Shown one piece after another: positions 15,667-36,963 of a DNA stretch of 64,000 nucleotides (the stretch's first letter is position 1; each line of letters starts with the position of its first letter). The notes below the pieces were generated by a model, which did no database searches, was not told where the DNA came from, and was given only the letters and a program-made list of their open reading frames with translations. Origin of the DNA: an uncultured Eubacteriales bacterium. GTDB taxonomy: Bacteria; Bacillota; Clostridia; Christensenellales; Aristaeellaceae. The translations under genes and the position numbers were made by a program. The DNA is taken from assembly GCA_902760595.1 (NCBI GenBank), contig CACWHI010000001.1:124963-188962 (forward strand), given 5' to 3'.

Positions 15667-17175
15667 TTACACCAGCCAGAACGGCGCCAGGGGCAGGCCG
15701 TTTTCCGAAAAGAAGGGCGCTGACGCGTAATCTGCCCAGGCGAAGCGGGCCATGACCGGACGGGGGACGTTCGGATGGCTGAGCCGGAGGAGGGAGCCGT
15801 CCAGTTCCGCTTCGGCCGGATAAAAGACGCCGTCCTGCCCCGCAACCTCCAGCAGCAGGTCAGACTGCCCGTTTGCGGTGACTGGCGCGCTGAGCTGGAT
15901 ATACAGCGTTTTATCCCGTGTATACTTGCTGACGGCACGCGGCGCTTCGGGAGCCGGAACGCCGTAAACCGTGTTCATGGCGCAGAAGAACAGGCGCTCT
16001 CCCACGACCCGCTTGTTGGTCGGATGGATGTTGTCGTACTCTCCCTGGTCGATCAGGATCGCCAGATCGGTATGGCTGACCTCCTGCGCCACGCGCTGCT
16101 GCGCCTGCCTGAGCCGGGGCCAGGTGCCGGTATCGGTCCCGCCGGCGGGGATCCACATGGGTAATTGTACGTTCAGGAAGGGCAGAGCCAGATTCTGAAA
16201 CTGCCTTCTCAGCTGGCTGATGAACGCCTTCAGCAGCACATCGTAACACTCGGTCCTCCCTGTGTCCTCTTCGCCCTGGTAAAAGAGGACGCCGGTGAGA
16301 GTCGCGGGTACGATCCTGCGCAGCATCGTTTCCGAGAGTCCGGCGGGGCGGTAAGGGGAGCCGGGACCGACGGGCGGGAACCAGGGGAAAGGCCCCAGCA
16401 GGCTGTTCAGCTCGGGCGCGGTGACGCCGGGACGCTCCCGGCGCACCTGGTCGGCCCTGGCGTTCCAGTCAGCCATGCCCTGCTCAAACACTTTTTCTTC
16501 CGCCAGGTACTGCTCCATCGTCTTCCTGCCGGCGCTCTTTTTGTATTCTTTTATATAGCGCTGGCCTTCGGCGATGCTTTCGAGCGTCTCTTTTTCCATC
16601 CAGCAGGTAATGGATGAGCCGCCCCAGTAGCAGTCGATGATTCCGATGGGGACGTTCAGCTCCTGCTGAAGCTTCATGGCAAAGAAATACGCGGCGGCGC
16701 TCATATCCCGTCCTTCGCCGGGACGGATCTCGCGCCATCCGGCTTCGGCGTTCGCCCTGTCGGCTTCCGGGGTGTTCAGGGCGTACTTGGGGACGTTGTA
16801 ATAGCGCACGAGGACATTCTCGTGCCGCCTGACAGCGGCCGGTCCGTCGTCGGCGTCCTTGAGCTCCAGCTCCATATTGCTCTGCCCGCCGGCCAGATAT
16901 ACGTCACCGATGGCGATATCGCAGGCCAGCGCCGCAGTTTTGCCGTCGCTGACGCGCAGCGTACAGTGCATCGCGGCCTCCTGCGGCGGCAGCAGGGCCA
17001 GGAACCGTCCGTTCCGCTCCGTGACCCGGTCGCTTCCAAGCACATCGCCGGAAGCGCTCAGCAGGGTCACGGTCAGCTCGGTGCCCTTTTCAGCCTCCCC
17101 GAATACGCGGATCTCCTGCCGGCGACACAGGATCGCCTTGTCCGAGAACAGGGATGACAGATGAAACGCGGCCAT
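15667..17175 (-). CDS. SASA/DUF303-family carbohydrate O-acetylesterase (sialate O-acetylesterase-like)
   Basis: GDVYLAGGQSNME, the GQSNM motif of the SASA family. The start was moved to MAAFHLSS (17175), just after the upstream gene's stop. Confidence 0.65.
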   Translation of the reverse strand: MAAFHLSSLFSDKAILCRRQEIRVFGEAEKGTELTVTLLSASGDVLGSDRVTERNGRFLALLPPQEAAMHCTLRVSDGKTAALACDIAIGDVYLAGGQSNMELELKDADDGPAAVRRHENVLVRYYNVPKYALNTPEADRANAEAGWREIRPGEGRDMSAAAYFFAMKLQQELNVPIGIIDCYWGGSSITCWMEKETLESIAEGQRYIKEYKKSAGRKTMEQYLAEEKVFEQGMADWNARADQVRRERPGVTAPELNSLLGPFPWFPPVGPGSPYRPAGLSETMLRRIVPATLTGVLFYQGEEDTGRTECYDVLLKAFISQLRRQFQNLALPFLNVQLPMWIPAGGTDTGTWPRLRQAQQRVAQEVSHTDLAILIDQGEYDNIHPTNKRVVGERLFFCAMNTVYGVPAPEAPRAVSKYTRDKTLYIQLSAPVTANGQSDLLLEVAGQDGVFYPAEAELDGSLLRLSHPNVPRPVMARFAWADYASAPFFSENGLPLAPFWLV

Positions 17176-17176
17176 A

Positions 17177-18199
17177 TCAGCGTTTTCCCAGTTCGGTATC
17201 CGTTTCGGAAACCTTGCTGTGCTCCTTGATGTAATCGATGATCTCGTCAAGATAGCCGAAGGCGACGGCGACATAGCTGTCCGCCGCGCCGTAATAAACG
17301 GCGATGCGCCCTGTGGGCTCATCCTGCAGCGTGGCGCAAGGGAAGCAGACGTTCGGCACGAAGCCGCGCTCCTCATACCATTCTTCGGGCGTCAGCAGGT
17401 AGTTTTCACAGCGGTATTTGACCCGGGAGGGCTCGTCGATGTCCAGGATCGCGCCGCCGATGGAATACACATAGCCGTTGCAGGTGTTGGTCACGCCGTG
17501 ATAGAAGATCAGCCAGCCATCGCTGGTCTCGATTGGCGCGGCGCCGCCGCCGATCTTGAGGCCTTCCCACCAGTTGCCGCTGCGTGACATCACATGGCGG
17601 TGCCTGCCCCAATACACCAGGTCGGGGCTCTCGCTGATATAGATGTCCCCAAAGGGCGTGTGGCCGCTGTCGGAGGGACGGGAAAGCATCATGAATTTCC
17701 CGTTGATCTTCCGGGGGAAGAGGACGGCGTTGCGGTTGAAGGCCAGGAAGGGATTCTCCAGCCGGGTGAAGGTTTTGAAATCCGTCGTCCGGGCCAGGCC
17801 GATCGCCGCGCCGTAAAAGTCCTGGCACCACATGATATAATAGGTATCCTCCACCTTGACCAGGCGGGGGTCGTAGGCATAGACGGGCATGAACGGCTTG
17901 CCGTCTTCATCGACAAAGTGGATTTTTTCCTTCTCGAATTCCCAGTGGATGGCGTCTTTGCTGTGGCCGAGGTAAATGTAGGATACGCCGTTGGTCTGCT
18001 CGCCGCGGAATACGCCGATGAAGCCATCCTGGTACGGCATGACCGCGGAATTGAAGATACGGGCTACGCCCTCCACGGGATTGCGGTGGATGATGGGGTT
18101 GTCGGAATATCGCCAGAGGGGAGAATTCCTCCAGCCCTCCGGCTTGTCCTGCCAGGGAATGTTGGGAAGCGCGTTCGCGATCATCTTGTACTTGCCCAT
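17177..18199 (-). CDS. glycoside hydrolase family 130 (mannoside phosphorylase family)
   Basis: The 340-aa length and sequence (NPIIHRNPVEG..., DTYYIMWCQDFYGAAIGLARTTDFKTF..., GGAAPIETSDGWLIFYHGV) are typical of GH130 phosphorylases. The start was moved to MGKYKM. Confidence 0.75.
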   Translation of the reverse strand: MGKYKMIANALPNIPWQDKPEGWRNSPLWRYSDNPIIHRNPVEGVARIFNSAVMPYQDGFIGVFRGEQTNGVSYIYLGHSKDAIHWEFEKEKIHFVDEDGKPFMPVYAYDPRLVKVEDTYYIMWCQDFYGAAIGLARTTDFKTFTRLENPFLAFNRNAVLFPRKINGKFMMLSRPSDSGHTPFGDIYISESPDLVYWGRHRHVMSRSGNWWEGLKIGGGAAPIETSDGWLIFYHGVTNTCNGYVYSIGGAILDIDEPSRVKYRCENYLLTPEEWYEERGFVPNVCFPCATLQDEPTGRIAVYYGAADSYVAVAFGYLDEIIDYIKEHSKVSETDTELGKR

Positions 18200-31011: not shown

Positions 31012-31043
31012 AGGCGCTGTCCGGAATCGGGCAGCGCCTTTTA
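31012..31043 (+). terminator. rho-independent terminator after thrS
   Basis: AGGCGCTG-tccggaatcggg-CAGCGCCT followed by TTTT, 20 nt after the thrS stop. Confidence 0.65.
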
Positions 31044-31108
31044 ACATTGCCGTAACATTTTTTTAATCAATAATTAAGAAATGCGCAACATGTCAATGCC
31101 GCTCTTTC

Positions 31109-31137
31109 TTGTTCCGAAAACCCCTGAGTGCTATAAT
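31109..31137 (+). promoter_or_regulatory. putative promoter of the SPFH / membrane / TIR module (extended -10)
   Basis: TTGTTC (31109-31114), a 17-nt spacer, then TGcTATAAT (-10 at 31132-31137). The leader is about 25 nt to the RBS GCAGGAGG and the ATG at 31166. Confidence 0.45.
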
Positions 31138-31165
31138 AGAAACAACACGCGCAGGAGGTTTCCGA

Positions 31166-32836
31166 ATGAGCAAGTTTATGATCGAATGCCCCAAATGTCA
31201 TAAGTATAACGAAGCTGCCAACGGACTGTTCGCGCGGCGGAGCATCCCGTGCCCCTGCGGCAATATCATCAACGTCAGGAACGATAAGATCGTCACCCGC
31301 GTGTGCCCGAACTGCGGCAACACGGTCGTTTACGACCAGTCGGAGGGGACGAAGGCCCGATGCCCGGTCTGCGGCAAGCAGCTGGTTGCGGACGGCGACA
31401 TGAAAAAGCTGATCCATTTCCCGTGCAGAACGTGCGGATGCCTGCTGCAGGCGGATAAAACCGCGGACAGGATCACCTGCGCGCTGTGCGGGGCCGAAAA
31501 CGATATAAAGGCCGAGGTCAGGAAGGCCCAGCTCCGGGAAAAGGGAGAGCCTGCGACCATCGAATACCGCGGCGACCGCAAGACGCTCGTCTGGCGTCAC
31601 CCGATGACAGAGTTCGTCTTTGGGTCTCAGCTGATCGTGCGCGAGGGGCAGGAAGCGATCTTCCTCCGCAACGGGGAAGCGCTCGATTCCTTTGGCCCCG
31701 GCAGGCATACGCTCGAGCTTCCCGCGATGCCCAGGCTGCAGGAGAAGCTGGGCGGCACCGGAGACATACCATTCCGCGCGGAAGTATATTTCGTCAATAT
31801 GCTGACGGTCTTCAACCAGAAATGGGGGACGCCCAACAAAGTCTCCTTCCGGGACCCGGACACGAATATCCCGTTTGATATCGGCGCGTCGGGCGGCTTC
31901 AGCATGCGGATCACGAACCCGCGCAAGGTGCTCGGGCGGATCGTCGGCACGCAGGACGATCTGAAGTCGGAAGATCTGTTTGATATGAACAACGGCTACT
32001 TCCGCCAGACGATCCTCGGCCGGATCAAGGGAAGGATGGCGCAGTGCATCCAGAGTGAAATGATCTCTGTGTTCGAGCTGGATTCCCATCTTGACGTGAT
32101 CTCCCGTTCCATCCAGGACGCGGTGAATGAGGACCTGACTGATTACGGGATCGAGCTCCCGGACTTTACCGTCGTCAATATCGTCGTCCCGGAGGACGAC
32201 CCGAATTATCGGGAACTGAAGTCCATACACGCCAAGAAAGTGCTGGATATGGAGAAGGCCAGGCTGGAGGTCAACGTGCACCGCGTCAGGAATGAGAGTA
32301 TCGTGGCTGACGCGGAAACCGAAGCCGAAGCCCTGCGCATAAAGAAAAAAGCGGAGGCCGACGCCTATGGCTATCAGGCTACCGCGGAAGCCAGGGAAAT
32401 GCGTGAGAAGGGATATACCTACCAGCAGGAGACCCAGCGGAAAACCGCCATGGCCGCGATGGAAAACGGCGGAGGCGCAGCGGCGGCAGGCGGCATCGCG
32501 GCGGATATGCTGCAGCTGGGCGTGGGGCTCAGCGCTGCAAAACAGGTTTCTGAGCTGACCAAGGCCGCTTTACAGCCTGAGGCCGACTCAGCTGAAGGCT
32601 GGGACTGCGCCTGCGGCCAGAAGGGGAACCGCCTCGCCTTCTGCCCGAATTGCGGCGCGAAAAAGCCGGTGTCCGCGGTCACATGGGACTGCGCCTGCGG
32701 CCAGAGAGGAAATACCCTGATGTACTGCCCGAACTGCGGTGCCAGACGTCCCGGCGCGGATACCTGGGACTGCAGCTGCGGCCAGACCGGAAATAAACTG
32801 CCCTTCTGCCCGTCCTGCGGCAGAAAGCGTCCCTGA
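31166..32836 (+). CDS. SPFH/band-7 domain protein flanked by multiple zinc ribbons (3 N-terminal, 3 C-terminal)
   Basis: N-terminus CPKC..CPC, CPNC..CPVC, CRTC..CALC. A central SPFH-like region (LVWRHPMTEFVFGSQLIVREGQEAIFLRNGE...FRAEVYFVNM...) is followed by a coiled coil. The C-terminus has a triple WDCxCGQxGNxLxFCPxCGxxRP repeat. No TM helix is evident. The start was moved to the ATG at 31166, which follows the RBS. Confidence 0.7.
   Translation: MSKFMIECPKCHKYNEAANGLFARRSIPCPCGNIINVRNDKIVTRVCPNCGNTVVYDQSEGTKARCPVCGKQLVADGDMKKLIHFPCRTCGCLLQADKTADRITCALCGAENDIKAEVRKAQLREKGEPATIEYRGDRKTLVWRHPMTEFVFGSQLIVREGQEAIFLRNGEALDSFGPGRHTLELPAMPRLQEKLGGTGDIPFRAEVYFVNMLTVFNQKWGTPNKVSFRDPDTNIPFDIGASGGFSMRITNPRKVLGRIVGTQDDLKSEDLFDMNNGYFRQTILGRIKGRMAQCIQSEMISVFELDSHLDVISRSIQDAVNEDLTDYGIELPDFTVVNIVVPEDDPNYRELKSIHAKKVLDMEKARLEVNVHRVRNESIVADAETEAEALRIKKKAEADAYGYQATAEAREMREKGYTYQQETQRKTAMAAMENGGGAAAAGGIAADMLQLGVGLSAAKQVSELTKAALQPEADSAEGWDCACGQKGNRLAFCPNCGAKKPVSAVTWDCACGQRGNTLMYCPNCGARRPGADTWDCSCGQTGNKLPFCPSCGRKRP
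32600..32833 (+). repeat. three tandem in-frame 69-84-nt repeats encoding zinc-ribbon modules
   Basis: TGGGACTGCGCCTGCGGCCAGA...TGCCC.AA.TGCGG... occurs three times. It encodes WDCACGQKGNRLAFCPNCGAKKP, WDCACGQRGNTLMYCPNCGARRP and WDCSCGQTGNKLPFCPSCGRKRP. Confidence 0.8.
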
Positions 32837-32863: not shown

Positions 32864-33364
32864 ATGAGAACAAACGGTAAGAAGCTGCTTGCCTTTCTAT
32901 TGGGCTTTCTGGCGATCAACGCGCTGATCCTGCTGCTCCCCTTCAGGAAGACAGCGCTGTTCATTGTGGTCTGGGCTGTACTGGCTGTGGCTTGCCTTTC
33001 TGCCGGTATCGTGATGTTGTTTAAAGGAGCCGCGAAAGGGAAAAAGGCCGGGACCAGCGACAGACAGATCGCGGCCCGGACGGCGGATATGAAGAGCCTG
33101 AGGGACAAAGCCCAGGCGCTCTGCGCATCCATTCAGGATCCTGGCAACGCGAAGGCGCTGAAAGAGCTTGCGGACGAGCTGCGCTATTCGGACCCGGTGT
33201 CCGGCGCCGCGACGGCTTCCTATGAGAAGCGGATCGATACGCTGCTTGAAAGCATCGCCCATCATGACGACGCAGCGGAGCGGAGCGAGCTGATCCGCCG
33301 CGCGACGGCCCTGGTCAGAGAGCGCGCGTCCGCTGCGAAAACGAATAAATCACTGAATTCCTGA
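32864..33364 (+). CDS. small membrane protein (2 predicted TM helices plus a cytoplasmic helical tail)
   Basis: LLAFLLGFLAINALILLL and LFIVVWAVLAVACLSAGIVMLF hydrophobic segments. The RBS GGGAGGA is present, and the gene sits 27 nt after the SPFH gene. Confidence 0.5.
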   Translation: MRTNGKKLLAFLLGFLAINALILLLPFRKTALFIVVWAVLAVACLSAGIVMLFKGAAKGKKAGTSDRQIAARTADMKSLRDKAQALCASIQDPGNAKALKELADELRYSDPVSGAATASYEKRIDTLLESIAHHDDAAERSELIRRATALVRERASAAKTNKSLNS

Positions 33365-33381: not shown

Positions 33382-36300
33382 ATGGCTTTTATCAAGTGCA
33401 AGATCTGCGGCGGCGACGTCGAGGTGGTCCAGGGGAAAAACTGGGGAACATGCGACTACTGCGGCTCCCGCGTGACCTTCCCCAAGGATTCGACGGAGCA
33501 GCGCATCAACCTTCTCAACCGCGCGGACGCCTTCCGGCGCCAGAACGAGTTTGACAAGGCGATCAGCGCGTACGAGCGGATCCTGGAGGACGACCAGACG
33601 GACGCCGAGGCGCACTGGGGCGCGGCGATTTCCCGCTTTGGCATTGAGTACGTCGAGAATCCGGTCACCTTCGAGCGGAAGCCGACGCTGCACCGCCTGC
33701 AGACGACCTCCATCCTCGCCGACGAGGACTATAAGGCGGCGATCGAGAACGCCCCGGACGATGAGACGCGGAAGCTGTATGAGGCCCAGGCCCAGGAGAT
33801 CGCGGATATCCAGAAGAAGGTCCTGGAACAGAGCGAGCGGGAGGATCAGTTCGATATCTTTATTTCATATAAGGAATCGGACGCCAACGGCGAACGCACC
33901 CGGGACAGCGTGATCGCCTTCCAGATCTATACCGAGCTGGTCAAGGAGGGCTACAACGTATTCTTCGCCAAGGAGACGCTCAAGGGGCGGCTGGGCGACG
34001 AATACGAGCCGATCATCTTTTCCGCCCTGCGCTCCTCCCAGGTCATGATCCTGATCGGCACGAAGAAAGAGTACTTTGAGGCGGAATGGGTGCGCAACGA
34101 ATGGACGCGCTACCTGGACCTCATGCGCCAGGAAAAGGATAAGCCCCTGGATGACCAGATCCCGCGGCAGCTGATCCCCTGCTACCGGGATATGGACGCA
34201 TATGAGCTGCCCGTGGAGCTCAACATGCTCCAGAGCATGAATATGAATTCCATCTCCTTCCTCCAGGACCTGCTGTCCGGGATCAGGAAGATCATGGAAG
34301 GCGGCAACCAGGAGACCTATAAGTATAAAACGGACGAGATCTCCCGCCTGCTGCAGCGCGCCATGAACCAGGCGGAGCTGGGTGAGTTCGGCCGCGCCGA
34401 TTCCCTGGCGGAAAAGGTCCTGGAGTCCGACCCGAACAACGCGACGGCGCAGATGGTCAAGCTGCTGGTGCAGCTGAAGGTCAATACGCCGGACGAGCTG
34501 GTCAAGCAGAAGCAGCCCCTGACGCACAACCGCCTGTACATCATGGCCTGCCGGAACGCCAAGGGCGCGCAGAAGAAGCGTTACGAAGGCTATAACAAGA
34601 AGATCATCGCCAATATCGAGGCGGCGGAGAACCAGAAGAAGCTGGACACGATCCTGAAAAAGATCGAGGGGATCAAAGCGCGCAGCAAGAAGCTCGCCGC
34701 CGACGATGACGAAGGCTTCCGCAAGCTGAGCGAGGAGGTCCGCGAGCAGGTCACGGCGTTGGAGCAACTGGGGATTTTCGGCGGAGCGGATGAGAAGGCC
34801 AAAGAGTTCGCGAAGCTTGCGGATGATATCGATCACGACCTGAAGGTGCGGATCGAGGACCGCCAGCGCCGTATTGAGGAAGAAAAGCAGCGCCAGCAGG
34901 CGATCCGCGAAGAGGAAGCCCGGAAAAAGGCGGAAAAGGAAAAGGCGGAGCGCGAGGCGAAGGAAGCCGCCGAAAAGGCGGAAAGGGAACGCCTGGCCAA
35001 GCTTCGCCGCCGGAAGGCGAGAAAGCGTCTGGCGGCCTTCCTGGCCGTTCTGGCGATCGCGGCGGCCATCACCGCCTATAAGCTGTATTTTGAAAACAAA
35101 CTGGCCTATGCCGCGGCTGTGGATACCATAGAGCAGTCCACGGAGAGCCGTCAGCTGGATTATGCGGAGACGATCCTCGACCGGCTGGGCAGCGACTATG
35201 AGGATGTGAGCGCGCGCAAACAGCAGGTATCCGCTGATCGGCGCTTCCTCAGCAATTACCATCGCCAGGCATATGCTGATTATATGGCGCTGGACGAAAA
35301 GTACCGCACGCCCGGGAAGCTTGACTGGTATGAGAAAGAATACCAGAGCGGTCTCAGCATGATCTCCGGTCAGCAGTTCGAAAACGCGATCGCGCTGCTG
35401 AAGAACATCGATTACTACAAGGACGCGCCGGACCAGGTCCGAAGGGCGTATCTGCTGATGGGCGACGCGGCCATGGCGCGTGATCAGTACACGGACGCGG
35501 CGTCTGCCTATCGTTCCGCCGGGGATTATCAGGATGCCGCCAGGAAGATCAGCCAGACGGAGGCCGCGATCCTGTTTGCGCAGGGAAGGTACGCGGACGC
35601 CTATGCCGCGTACAAGGCGCTGGCCGGTGAATACTTCACGCCCAAGCATAAGGCGTGGTACGACCAGCAGTACGATAACGCGAAAAAGTACCTGGACAGC
35701 GGAGAGTACCAGAAGGCGATCGAAGCCTTCGACGCGATCAGGTATTACAGCGAAACGGGCCGCAATGCCGCAGAGCAGCTGCAGAACGCGCATTACAGCT
35801 ACGCCGCGCAGTCGAAGGATCCGGCAGTTGCGCGCGAACAGTACGCGCTGGCGGGAAATTACCGCGACAGCGAAAGCCTGATCAGGCAGCTGGACGCGGA
35901 CGATCTGTTCGAGGCCGGCAGGTACGAGCAGGCCTACCAGCTCTATCAGACGCTTGACGAAAAATACCAGACGCATAAAGCGGATTATACCGCCTGGTTT
36001 GACGCGGCCAACAAGGCGATGACAGAGAACGGCGATCTTGAGCTGGCGATCAGGAGCTTCCGGAACATCACATATATGGACAGCGCCGAGTACCCGGTGA
36101 AGCAGAGGCTGCAGACCGCTTACCTGACCTACGCGCAGTCGCTCCTGCAGCCGACGGGGAAGATTGATGAAACCGCCGTCACTAGAGCGAAGACCTATTT
36201 CGACCTGGCAGGCGTTTCCGGCGATGACCAGGTGAGCCGCTATTATTACGAGACCGGCGTCAAAGCGCTGGAGAATGACGATGTGCGGACGGCTGAAAAG

Positions 36301-36963
36301 GCGTTTGCCGGCGCGGAGGGATATCCTGACACGGATCAGCTGATCAAAGCGCACTATTATGAATCGGCGAAAACGGCCATGGCGGGGGATAACGCCGAGG
36401 AAGCGGCGGAGCTGCTGCGGCGTGCCGGCGGTTATCAGGACGCCGACGCGCTTCTGAAACAGCTGGAGGCTTATGTGAACGCGAAGGAGCTGCTGAAGCA
36501 GCAAAAGATGATCGAAGCCATGCGCGCTTTCACGGAAGCCGGCGACTGTATGGACGCGCCGACACTGGCGCAGCGCTGCGGGGAGCTGGTATATAACGGG
36601 GCCATGAAGCAGCCGCTCGCAGAGCGCCTGGAGATCCTCCGGCAGCTGGGCGATTTCAAGGACGCGCAGGCGCAGGTAAAAGCCGCGGAGGACGCCTACG
36701 AGCAGGCGGAGCAGGCGTACAGCGCCGGTCAGTACGCAGAGGCTGCACGCCTGTTTGAATCGCTCGACAACTACAGGGAAGCAAAATCAAAGCTGGATCT
36801 GAGCCTATACTGCTATGCCGGCGAGCTGCTGATCAAAGAGGATTACGCAGCTGCGTTGGACATATATGAATCCCTTGGCGATTATCTGAACAGCCGCAGC
36901 AATGCAGCCACCTGCCAGGCAAAGCTCGCGGAGTCTCAGCAAGGAAGTGAAAACGGCGACTGA
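33382..36963 (+). CDS. zinc-ribbon / TIR-domain protein with a single TM helix and a C-terminal TPR-like repeat domain of about 630 aa
   Basis: N-terminus CKIC..CDYC. The TIR region is DIFISYKESD...SSQVMILIGTKKEYFEAEWVRNEW, with the S.WC..E[LW] segment retaining Glu. A KE-rich coiled coil ends in LRRRKARKR, followed by the TM helix LAAFLAVLAIAAAITAYKLYF (about nt 35010-35080). The remainder is Y/A/D/Q-rich 35-80-aa repeats. The RBS GGAGGAA is present. Confidence 0.7.
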   Translation: MAFIKCKICGGDVEVVQGKNWGTCDYCGSRVTFPKDSTEQRINLLNRADAFRRQNEFDKAISAYERILEDDQTDAEAHWGAAISRFGIEYVENPVTFERKPTLHRLQTTSILADEDYKAAIENAPDDETRKLYEAQAQEIADIQKKVLEQSEREDQFDIFISYKESDANGERTRDSVIAFQIYTELVKEGYNVFFAKETLKGRLGDEYEPIIFSALRSSQVMILIGTKKEYFEAEWVRNEWTRYLDLMRQEKDKPLDDQIPRQLIPCYRDMDAYELPVELNMLQSMNMNSISFLQDLLSGIRKIMEGGNQETYKYKTDEISRLLQRAMNQAELGEFGRADSLAEKVLESDPNNATAQMVKLLVQLKVNTPDELVKQKQPLTHNRLYIMACRNAKGAQKKRYEGYNKKIIANIEAAENQKKLDTILKKIEGIKARSKKLAADDDEGFRKLSEEVREQVTALEQLGIFGGADEKAKEFAKLADDIDHDLKVRIEDRQRRIEEEKQRQQAIREEEARKKAEKEKAEREAKEAAEKAERERLAKLRRRKARKRLAAFLAVLAIAAAITAYKLYFENKLAYAAAVDTIEQSTESRQLDYAETILDRLGSDYEDVSARKQQVSADRRFLSNYHRQAYADYMALDEKYRTPGKLDWYEKEYQSGLSMISGQQFENAIALLKNIDYYKDAPDQVRRAYLLMGDAAMARDQYTDAASAYRSAGDYQDAARKISQTEAAILFAQGRYADAYAAYKALAGEYFTPKHKAWYDQQYDNAKKYLDSGEYQKAIEAFDAIRYYSETGRNAAEQLQNAHYSYAAQSKDPAVAREQYALAGNYRDSESLIRQLDADDLFEAGRYEQAYQLYQTLDEKYQTHKADYTAWFDAANKAMTENGDLELAIRSFRNITYMDSAEYPVKQRLQTAYLTYAQSLLQPTGKIDETAVTRAKTYFDLAGVSGDDQVSRYYYETGVKALENDDVRTAEKAFAGAEGYPDTDQLIKAHYYESAKTAMAGDNAEEAAELLRRAGGYQDADALLKQLEAYVNAKELLKQQKMIEAMRAFTEAGDCMDAPTLAQRCGELVYNGAMKQPLAERLEILRQLGDFKDAQAQVKAAEDAYEQAEQAYSAGQYAEAARLFESLDNYREAKSKLDLSLYCYAGELLIKEDYAAALDIYESLGDYLNSRSNAATCQAKLAESQQGSENGD

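Follow-up and report, generated by a model that had tools for sequence, protein, structure and literature searches.

A conserved cluster of SPFH, membrane and TIR genes

The window analysed here, a 64,000-nucleotide (nt) stretch of contig CACWHI010000001.1 from an uncultured Eubacteriales bacterium, carries a gene for a 556-amino acid (aa) protein in which an SPFH core of the Band_7_1 type is framed by two arrays of three zinc ribbons (ZnR). It is followed on the same strand by the gene for a small membrane protein and by a gene for a large protein with ZnR, TPR and TIR domains (Table 1). The trio is predicted to be an accessory module of gut and rumen Clostridia that is complete in itself, and its most likely function is membrane-associated TIR signalling or immunity (conflict). 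By analogy with other SPFH proteins we favour, with moderate confidence, a role of the 556-aa protein as a sub-membrane platform that organises or restrains the TIR proteins, with the membrane protein as its tether and the zinc ribbons as docking sites. Full-text literature searches for SPFH or Band-7 proteins in combination with TIR, HEPN, zinc ribbon or defence returned no account of such an operon.

The initial annotation of this DNA had suggested a connection between the SPFH gene and the neighbouring membrane-protein and TIR genes, and this is borne out by their tight, conserved synteny. Hidden Markov models (HMMs) of the neighbouring proteins were built from fetched loci and run on all open reading frames (ORFs) of 86 loci; 83 loci are non-redundant, mostly from different species, and 75 of these have at least 800 nt of downstream sequence. 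A homologue of the membrane protein is encoded immediately after the SPFH gene in 65 of the 75 loci, usually a few bases apart or overlapping, and in four others a single gene intervenes (total 69/75). A word-index search for the membrane protein had retrieved six homologues only, and the locus-built HMMs were used in its place. In 70 of the 83 loci the SPFH gene has at least one same-strand gene of the ZnR-TPR-TIR family directly upstream and/or downstream. Twenty-two loci carry two to five copies of this gene, and in L037, L029, L045, L046 and L063 three to five tandem paralogues with differing C-terminal regions surround the SPFH-membrane gene pair.

Genes outside the block are unrelated between loci: the 123 flanking proteins fall into 117 Pfam families, the commonest being resolvase (5/123) and phage integrase (3/123), and the rest are mostly housekeeping functions. 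A syntenic orthologue of the window cluster was found in locus L087, where the order thrS, SPFH, membrane, TIR, glpA is the same. The flanking housekeeping proteins of the two loci are 86-93% identical, compared with 73% for the SPFH protein, about 50% for the membrane protein and 65% for the TIR protein. The retained gene order and lower identity indicate that the block has been vertically retained in this lineage yet is evolving faster than its surroundings.

Architecture of the SPFH protein

Pfam family Band_7_1 (PF13421) matches residues 142-344 of the 556-aa protein (E = 5.2e-40; score 137.8 bits, curated gathering cut-off 24), and the match spans positions 1-198 of the 211-position profile. 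The Band_7 profile also matches the core, more weakly, and PF13421 is precomputed on all 120 of the best homologues. An AlphaFold2 (AF2) model, with a mean predicted local distance difference test (pLDDT) score of 72.6, contains three beta-ribbons at the N-terminus, the SPFH core, helices, a disordered linker and the C-terminal knuckles. Foldseek comparison with the PDB gave matches to prohibitin, erlin, stomatin, HflK/C, flotillin and QmcA (E values of 3.5e-9 to 1e-6), with TM-scores (target) of 0.70-0.75 against isolated stomatin SPFH domains, and the family profile finds erlin-1 by sequence, positions 271-431 aligning with erlin-1 residues 92-259. Profile and fold searches therefore agree on the band-7-like core proposed initially, and the coiled coil expected after it corresponds to the two helices of the model (Table 1). 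The protein was also thought to lack a transmembrane (TM) helix, and this is confirmed: the highest 19-residue Kyte-Doolittle score is 1.25, at residues 437-455 in the Gly/Ala linker, no segment reaches TM level, and 85 of 87 family members are likewise predicted to have no TM helix. The Gly-rich hydrophobic segment is itself conserved, including in the Butyrivibrio protein described below. In three proteins of about 1050 aa from the same clade (P0262, P0276 and P0287) the linker is much longer, mucin-like and of low complexity.

The N-terminal array consists of six knuckles (C8xxC/C29xC, C47xxC/C66xxC and C87xxC/C105xxC) that give three zinc ribbons. Three pairs of CxxC motifs had been described here, and the count is correct, but ribbon 1 has CxC as its second knuckle. 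All six knuckles are kept in 120 of the 120 best homologues, whatever their C-terminal module count, and the ribbon segments are as conserved (0.63-0.79) as the SPFH core (0.75). Residues 1-125 were scanned exhaustively with HMMER against 1.84 billion representatives, and only 245 clusters were retrieved at E <= 1e-3. Among the matches listed, the array is N-terminal in nearly all clusters, and Band_7_1 lies behind the triple ribbon in all eight clusters sampled across the length range. Judged by these matches, the N-terminal triple ribbon is confined to Band_7_1 proteins and is the distinctive part of the family.

The ribbon segments are all net basic (+1 to +3 each) and the SPFH core is acidic (-9). 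This charge pattern, together with sub-threshold similarities of the ribbons to RNA polymerase subunit P, TFIIB and S27e, would fit a role of the arrays as nucleic-acid sensors, by which an SPFH assembly at the membrane binds phage or plasmid DNA or RNA and then triggers the TIR proteins. Those similarities all fall far below the curated cut-offs, however, and zinc ribbons are as often protein-protein or lipid-binding modules. Moreover, the variable ectodomains of the TIR proteins (see later) look like the sensors of the system, and nucleic-acid sensing by the ribbons is considered quite unlikely.

The C-terminal ribbon repeats

Three modules of the pattern WDCxCG..(F/Y)CPxCG..(K/R)(K/R)P begin at residues 479, 507 and 534 (nt 32600, 32684 and 32765). 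They are encoded by units of 84, 81 and 69 nt, the last codon of the array ending at 32833, and both the coordinates and the unit sizes first read from the DNA proved exact. The knuckle pairs lie at residues 481/493, 509/521 and 536/548, the first knuckle of each module being CxC, and every module has a conserved Trp and a basic K/R-K/R-P tail. The modules had been called near-identical, which is not the case: pairwise identities are 65-74% as protein and 68-74% as DNA, codons differ at 1 to 7 of the 15-17 conserved residues per module pair, and Tandem Repeats Finder reports merely 1.9 copies with a 75% match. Modules in the same position of orthologues (62-75% identical overall) match at 18-20 of 22 positions, compared with 14-16 of 22 for sister modules. 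Since same-position modules match best, the duplications predate these species and purifying selection keeps them. Of the two explanations offered initially for the repeats, maintenance by selection is retained and recent duplication is not.

The suggestion that the array is prone to changes in length was supported by a comparison of copy numbers. Among the best 120 homologues the C-terminal module count ranges from 0 to 6, mostly 3 or 4, and a near-identical strain is one unit short. In the cluster of sequences with at least 90% identity to the window protein, 12 of 14 have a length of 556 aa, and the remaining two of 528 and 522 aa. The 528-aa variant (P0130/L088) is without precisely unit 1 (32600-32683, 84 nt), the junction falling within a 22-nt stretch that units 1 and 2 both contain; three single-nucleotide polymorphisms nearby show that the source of this variant is another strain. 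The loss looks like a genuine allele because a 22-nt identity would not suffice for collapse in a k=141 assembly. In the 522-aa variant (P0139), 34 residues are deleted that comprise module 1 and the opening knuckle of module 2, so that half a ribbon is left; the deletion may be a genuine allele or stem from an assembly or sequencing error.

Given that the window derives from a metagenome-type assembly, and that two of the 14 near-identical sequences differ in length right at the repeat array, an assembly or annotation artefact was considered as the source of the C-terminal tandem repeat. This is extremely improbable. The units share at most 22 identical bases and an identity of 68-74%, far below what would collapse in k=87-141 assemblies, and the 556-aa length recurs in the 12 independent assemblies noted above. 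Multi-module tails are found family-wide, with modules conserved by position in orthologues, and an artefact is effectively refuted by the constant length, the low unit identity and the presence of the architecture in hundreds of genomes.

The composition of the tails and linker bears on another alternative, in which basic, aromatic ribbons and the Gly/Ala linker would anchor the protein in anionic lipids, making it an autonomous microdomain organiser that has no specific client. The K/R-K/R-P tails, the Trp in each C-terminal module, the conservation of the Gly-rich hydrophobic segment as far as Butyrivibrio and the location of the N-terminal ribbons at the canonical membrane-anchor position of SPFH proteins are all in keeping with it. 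It leaves the near-obligate membrane partner and the TIR linkage unexplained, however, and is very unlikely as a replacement for the platform model, within which lipid contact fits as a sub-mechanism.

The membrane partner

In most loci the partner is a protein of about 230 aa with four TM helices and a cytosolic helical bundle bearing the conserved motif LADELRYSDP. Compared with its closest four-TM homologues (226 aa, P0123-P0125), the window protein has a clean internal deletion of about 60 aa, from the end of TM2 through TM4, that leaves two TM helices and an unchanged predicted N-in/C-in topology. The 166-aa form is considered a real allele, since a 99%-identical copy of the same length occurs in other samples. 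The AF2 model of a four-TM homologue shows the four TM helices and a four-helix bundle, for which Foldseek found only generic helical bundles in the PDB (best E = 0.25). Searches of the partner against Pfam, NCBIfam and PADLOC gave no match, and neither a TPM nor an NfeD domain was found. At several loci a TIR-less paralogue of the third gene, with TPR plus RCC1 or BspA-type leucine-rich repeats, is located between the SPFH and membrane genes (L010:11870-13546, L029:11861-13534, L045:11986-13911, L054:11433-13046 and L068:6034-7230).

The ZnR-TPR-TIR proteins

The first ~300 aa of the TIR protein are conserved in 52 homologues, all of which have TIR_2, and include the invariant residues C6, C9, C24 and C27 and the motif W236-V-x-N-E240-W. 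The glutamate of this motif, which we take to be the counterpart of that in the WVHKE sequence of SARM1, is the candidate catalytic residue. A search of the PDB with the TIR domain as a single sequence found nothing, and a TIR profile gave weak matches to the Toll-like receptors (TLR) TLR2/15, to 4lzp and to flax L6 (E values of 0.004-0.3). Beyond ~300 aa the proteins are variable, with RCC1 (13), DUF6273 (11), Listeria-Bacteroides repeats (Flg_new), BspA-type leucine-rich repeats (LRR_5), ankyrin or TPR.

In the TIR protein of the window, the basic RRRKARKR sequence ahead of the TM helix predicts that the N-terminus is inside and the C-terminal 625 aa outside. Its C-terminal half, the predicted ectodomain, is built of repeats of ~37 aa with a G-x-Y-x-D-(A/S) signature, which are TPR-like and belong to no specific Pfam family; the same repeats occur in L002/L003 (13000-15300), where they show up in the DNA with a period of 111 nt. 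At least one TM helix is predicted for 51 of the 89 complete TIR proteins, the other 38 having none. In the single-pass copies, the mean number of Lys and Arg residues is 6.4 in the 15 residues before the helix versus 1.9 after it, a bias that points to a cytosolic N-terminus.

Sequence diversification of the C-terminal domain is suggested by locus L003. There, the 3' end of a TIR-DUF6273 gene (16308-16417) recurs 800 nt downstream (17108-17217), ahead of an RVT_1 gene that starts at 17467. Between these 110-nt copies, 13 of the 17 mismatches fall at adenines of the downstream, template-like copy, the hallmark of a diversity-generating retroelement (DGR), and the C-terminal domain of the TIR protein appears to be hypermutated. 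DUF6273 has been reported as a target domain of DGRs (PMC10743442).

Distribution and variable gene content

More than 2,700 database proteins match the 556-aa protein at E <= 1e-5, and the best 120 of these cover 100% of the query and are 540-670 aa in length. A one-genome-per-species collection yielded at least 585 confirmed stretches. Among the matches listed, Clostridia predominate (Oscillospiraceae, Lachnospiraceae, Ruminococcus and others), besides a few Erysipelotrichales and sporadic metagenome-assembled genomes of other groups. Plasmid and phage collections contained no match to the full architecture, only partial matches to the SPFH core or the C-terminal ribbons. The partial plasmid matches led to a minimal triad on the 20-kb Butyrivibrio fibrisolvens plasmid pNP21 (L086, 6700-10053). 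Its SPFH protein has Band_7_1, a Gly-rich linker and a DZR domain, without N-terminal ribbons. The second gene encodes a 145-aa TM protein with an RYSDP domain (E = 3e-9 to the window membrane protein), and the third a 464-aa ZnR-TPR protein without TIR (E = 9e-9). The pNP21 triad adjoins a recombinase, a restriction-modification S subunit and a YoeB/RelB toxin-antitoxin pair.

Additional genes may occupy the interval between the membrane and TIR genes. This variable slot holds HEPN genes in L002-L005 and L059 (L002:10451-11062, L005:10498-11121 and L059:7198-7776), DUF2971 genes corresponding to the PADLOC candidate PDC-S31 in L007 (2939-3634) and L015 (12469-13128), and a CAP12/Pycsar-type TIR gene (PDC-S35, E = 2.5e-68) in L080 (13199-13849). 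Strong PADLOC matches among the relatives are limited to such optional inserted genes; of their core proteins only the TIR proteins match, to ThsB (E = 0.0028) and PDC-S66 (E = 8e-4).

Gene start and expression signals

Positions of the features in the window are given in Table 1. The ORF at 31166-32836 was assigned an ATG start, in place of the TTG at 31109 chosen in the program-made ORF list, because AGGAGG and a promoter-like site precede it and all homologues start there. The SPFH stop codon is followed after 27 nt by the membrane gene, and this after 17 nt by the TIR gene. The predicted hairpin at 31013-31044 sets the operon apart from the upstream housekeeping gene, thrS. An ORF of 404 aa lies antisense to the SPFH gene (31067-32281, minus strand), and similar long shadow ORFs occur across the region. 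These antisense ORFs are by-products of the 60% G+C content, and no homologue backs any of them.

Table 1. Positions of the SPFH gene, its neighbours and their sequence elements in the window.
Feature	Position (nt)	Strand	Basis
Terminator-like hairpin and T-run after thrS (GGCGCTGTCCGGAATCGGGCAGCGCC TTTT)	31013..31044	+	Read from sequence; missing from scan list
Candidate sigma-70 promoter, TTGTTC-N17-TATAAT, with TGC just upstream of TATAAT	31109..31137	+	Consensus match only
Shine-Dalgarno AGGAGG, 7 nt 5' of ATG	31153..31158	+	Read from sequence
ZnRx3-SPFH(Band_7_1)-coiled coil-linker-ZnRx3 gene, 556 aa	31166..32836	+	ORF, Pfam, homologues, AF2, Foldseek
N-terminal triple zinc-ribbon array, aa 1-125 (ribbons ~1-40, 41-78, 79-125)	31166..31540	+	Cysteine knuckles
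SPFH / Band_7_1 core, aa 126-345	31541..32200	+	Pfam PF13421, Foldseek
Long helical (coiled-coil) segment, aa 346-434	32201..32467	+	AF2 helices 346-414 and 419-434
Gly/Ala-rich, moderately hydrophobic, disordered linker, aa 435-478	32468..32599	+	pLDDT <50 over 433-476
C-terminal module 1 (WDCACGQKGNRLAFCPNCGAKKP) and linker, 84-nt unit	32600..32683	+	Absent in strain variant P0130/L088
C-terminal module 2 (WDCACGQRGNTLMYCPNCGARRP) and linker, 81-nt unit	32684..32764	+	Motif mapping, repeat finder
C-terminal module 3 (WDCSCGQTGNKLPFCPSCGRKRP), 69-nt unit	32765..32833	+	20/22 match to last module of P0002 and P0007
Partner membrane protein, 166 aa, 2 TM and cytosolic helical domain with LADELRYSDP motif	32864..33364	+	ORF, hydropathy
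ZnR-TPR-TIR-coiled coil-TM protein, 1193 aa, repeat-rich C-terminal region	33382..36963	+	Pfam TIR_2 aa 159-255, TPR 44-82
TIR_2 domain, aa 159-255; candidate catalytic Glu240 just inside	33856..34146	+	Pfam, homologue alignment
Single TM helix of TIR protein, aa 550-568, preceded by RRRKARKR	35029..35085	+	Hydropathy

Comparison with known SPFH and TIR systems

A soluble SPFH protein of the Band_7_1 type that carries a low-complexity linker and, at its C-terminus, a zinc finger has a precedent in Bacillus subtilis, where YdjI/SamI belongs to the pspA-ydjGHI (= pspA-samGHI) operon (PMC8581546, PMC11237479). Membrane localisation of YdjI requires YdjG/YdjH, and YdjI is needed for PspA foci (PMC8581546; PMC11237479; bioRxiv 10.64898/2026.02.06.704340). 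SamI restrains signalling by SamG/H (bioRxiv 10.64898/2026.02.06.704340), and YdjI/SamI, a regulator or scaffold of its membrane partners, is a precedent for control of such partners by an SPFH protein. The window protein resembles the published description of YdjI in its Band_7_1 domain, missing membrane anchor, low-complexity linker and C-terminal zinc finger, but differs in having three extra N-terminal ribbons and three C-terminal ribbons (0-6 in the family). Its operon also lacks pspA, a YdjH with TPM domain and a YdjG (two ZnR, an NTF2-like domain and TM), the partners being replaced by the two- or four-TM protein, which belongs to no known family, and by ZnR-TPR-TIR proteins. The view that a soluble zinc-ribbon SPFH scaffold is unusual was thus only partly upheld: YdjI/SamI and the Butyrivibrio protein with Band_7_1 and DZR speak against it, whereas the window protein is indeed set apart by its three N-terminal ribbons, the multiplication of those at the C-terminus and its TIR neighbours. 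Given the C-terminal zinc finger of YdjI/SamI and the DZR of the Butyrivibrio protein, C-terminal ribbons are seen as a family trait that has been multiplied here. No description was found of the N-terminal triple ribbon or of the gene neighbourhood, and this is apparently a known scaffold family with a clade-specific architecture and a new class of client.

The resemblance raises the question of whether the protein has the same task as YdjI/SamI, that is, recruitment of a PspA/ESCRT-III homologue encoded elsewhere in response to envelope stress, with the TIR genes as unrelated neighbours. The shared layout of Band_7_1, linker and C-terminal zinc finger (PMC8581546; bioRxiv 10.64898/2026.02.06.704340), the adjoining membrane protein and the location of the window cluster among housekeeping genes are all consistent with this. 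However, no PspA was detected in the 64-kb window or the 86 loci by phmmer, a weak test made with an approximate E. coli PspA query. The membrane partner is neither TPM/YdjH-like nor YdjG-like and has no Pfam match, and a TIR linkage in 70 of 83 loci despite unrelated flanks is hard to call coincidence. An envelope-stress role of this kind is unlikely.

By fold, the SPFH core and long helix are also comparable to those of HflK/C-FtsH, QmcA-YbbJ/NfeD, prohibitin, erlin, stomatin and flotillin. The window system shares with the cage-forming SPFH systems a small membrane protein as operon partner and a proposed role in enclosing or organising membrane proteins. Cage-forming SPFH proteins have their own N-terminal TM or hairpin anchor, whereas the window protein has no TM helix and carries ribbons at both ends. 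It differs from QmcA-YbbJ and stomatin-STOPP in the missing N-terminal TM anchor and in a partner without NfeD; the partners of the cage-forming proteins are NfeD or FtsH.

The neighbouring proteins resemble Thoeris ThsB, CAP12/Pycsar TIR effectors and TIR-STING in having TIR_2 with an invariant Glu in a W-V-x-x-E context. In contrast to known TIR immune systems, there is no ThsA, cyclase or other known partner, and the similarity to ThsB is below threshold (E = 0.003). The combination of ZnR, TPR and TIR, often with a TM helix and an ectodomain, and the linkage to SPFH are further differences. The DGR-targeted DUF6273/CLec-like domain joined to TIR in L003 is reminiscent of DGR conflict sensors. 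DGR-diversified conflict systems with TIR have been described only with STAND or MoxR-vWA modules in multicellular bacteria, and without SPFH (PMC10907252). The topology of ectodomain, TM helix and cytosolic TIR recalls the TLRs, a likeness that is architectural and analogical, demonstrated homology being limited to the TIR fold. Similarly, plant HIR (SPFH) proteins are reported to sit next to immune-type receptors (PMC13534476); this is an analogy only, with demonstrated homology limited to the SPFH fold.

Discussion

As far as is known, the SPFH proteins with solved structures all use the SPFH domain and the helix after it to build large membrane rings or cages, and serve to organise or gate membrane clients. 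The 556-aa protein would then be a peripheral, cytosolic SPFH scaffold of the YdjI/SamI kind, in which three basic ribbons stand in for the N-terminal anchor. Its SPFH core and long helix may assemble into a ring or cage beneath the membrane, which would be tethered by the co-transcribed two- or four-TM protein with the RYSDP domain. The zinc ribbons, six per protomer, could dock the co-encoded ZnR-TPR-TIR proteins, many of which are predicted to be single-pass with N-in/C-out topology. The platform might keep the TIR proteins inactive or apart, as SamI does with SamG/H, or cluster them for activation. With ribbons at the anchor position, a near-obligate membrane partner and TIR proteins that bear ZnR and TPR domains, a sub-membrane platform is the most economical reading. 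Signs of a conflict function are the HEPN, DUF2971 and CAP12-type TIR genes in the variable slot of some loci, the DGR pattern in L003 and the lower identity of the three cluster proteins than of their flanks between the window and L087.

Several observations weigh against this interpretation, or against a role in immunity. The SPFH, membrane and TIR proteins of the window had no matches in PADLOC-DB v2.0.0. Recombinases make up only 8 of the 123 flanking proteins and classic defence genes are not enriched, and both the window cluster and that of L087 sit stably between housekeeping thrS and a glpA-like gene, with no recognisable defence island. A nearby TIR gene is missing from 13 of the 83 loci, several of these being short contigs. 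The term receptor-like is not true of all TIR paralogues, given the 38 of 89 without a predicted TM helix. The TIR domain has diverged too far to be aligned by sequence with solved TIRs, so that the catalytic assignment of E240 is made from the motif, and TIR NADase activity, like oligomerisation and interaction of the proteins, is predicted from sequence and analogy. Finally, C-terminal ribbon number and TIR gene number are uncorrelated (rho = 0.05, p = 0.66), which argues against docking of one client per ribbon.

A more far-reaching version of the platform model is put forward only tentatively. The module may be a widespread, hitherto unrecognised immune or surveillance system of gut and rumen Clostridia in which TLR-style TIR proteins are corralled beneath the membrane by a zinc-ribbon SPFH cage with a four-TM anchor; the cage would gate TIR clustering and NAD+-derived signalling. 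The ectodomains, variable and sometimes DGR-hypermutated, might, in this speculative scheme, respond to extracellular threats such as phage adsorption. If true, it would be a bacterial counterpart of the raft- or SPFH-organised immune receptors of plants and animals.

SPFH proteins are universal, and their clients are known in few cases, such as FtsH, NfeD, PspA/SamGH and ion channels. A coupling of SPFH to TIR, if true, would add an immune-type client to this list. It would also provide a tractable bacterial model for SPFH control of receptor clustering, for comparison with plant HIR proteins and raft-associated TLR signalling, and the copy-number-polymorphic ribbon tail offers a natural variable for effects of valency. 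The module is common in Clostridia of the human and animal gut and so may influence how phages and hosts, or cells among themselves, interact in the microbiome.

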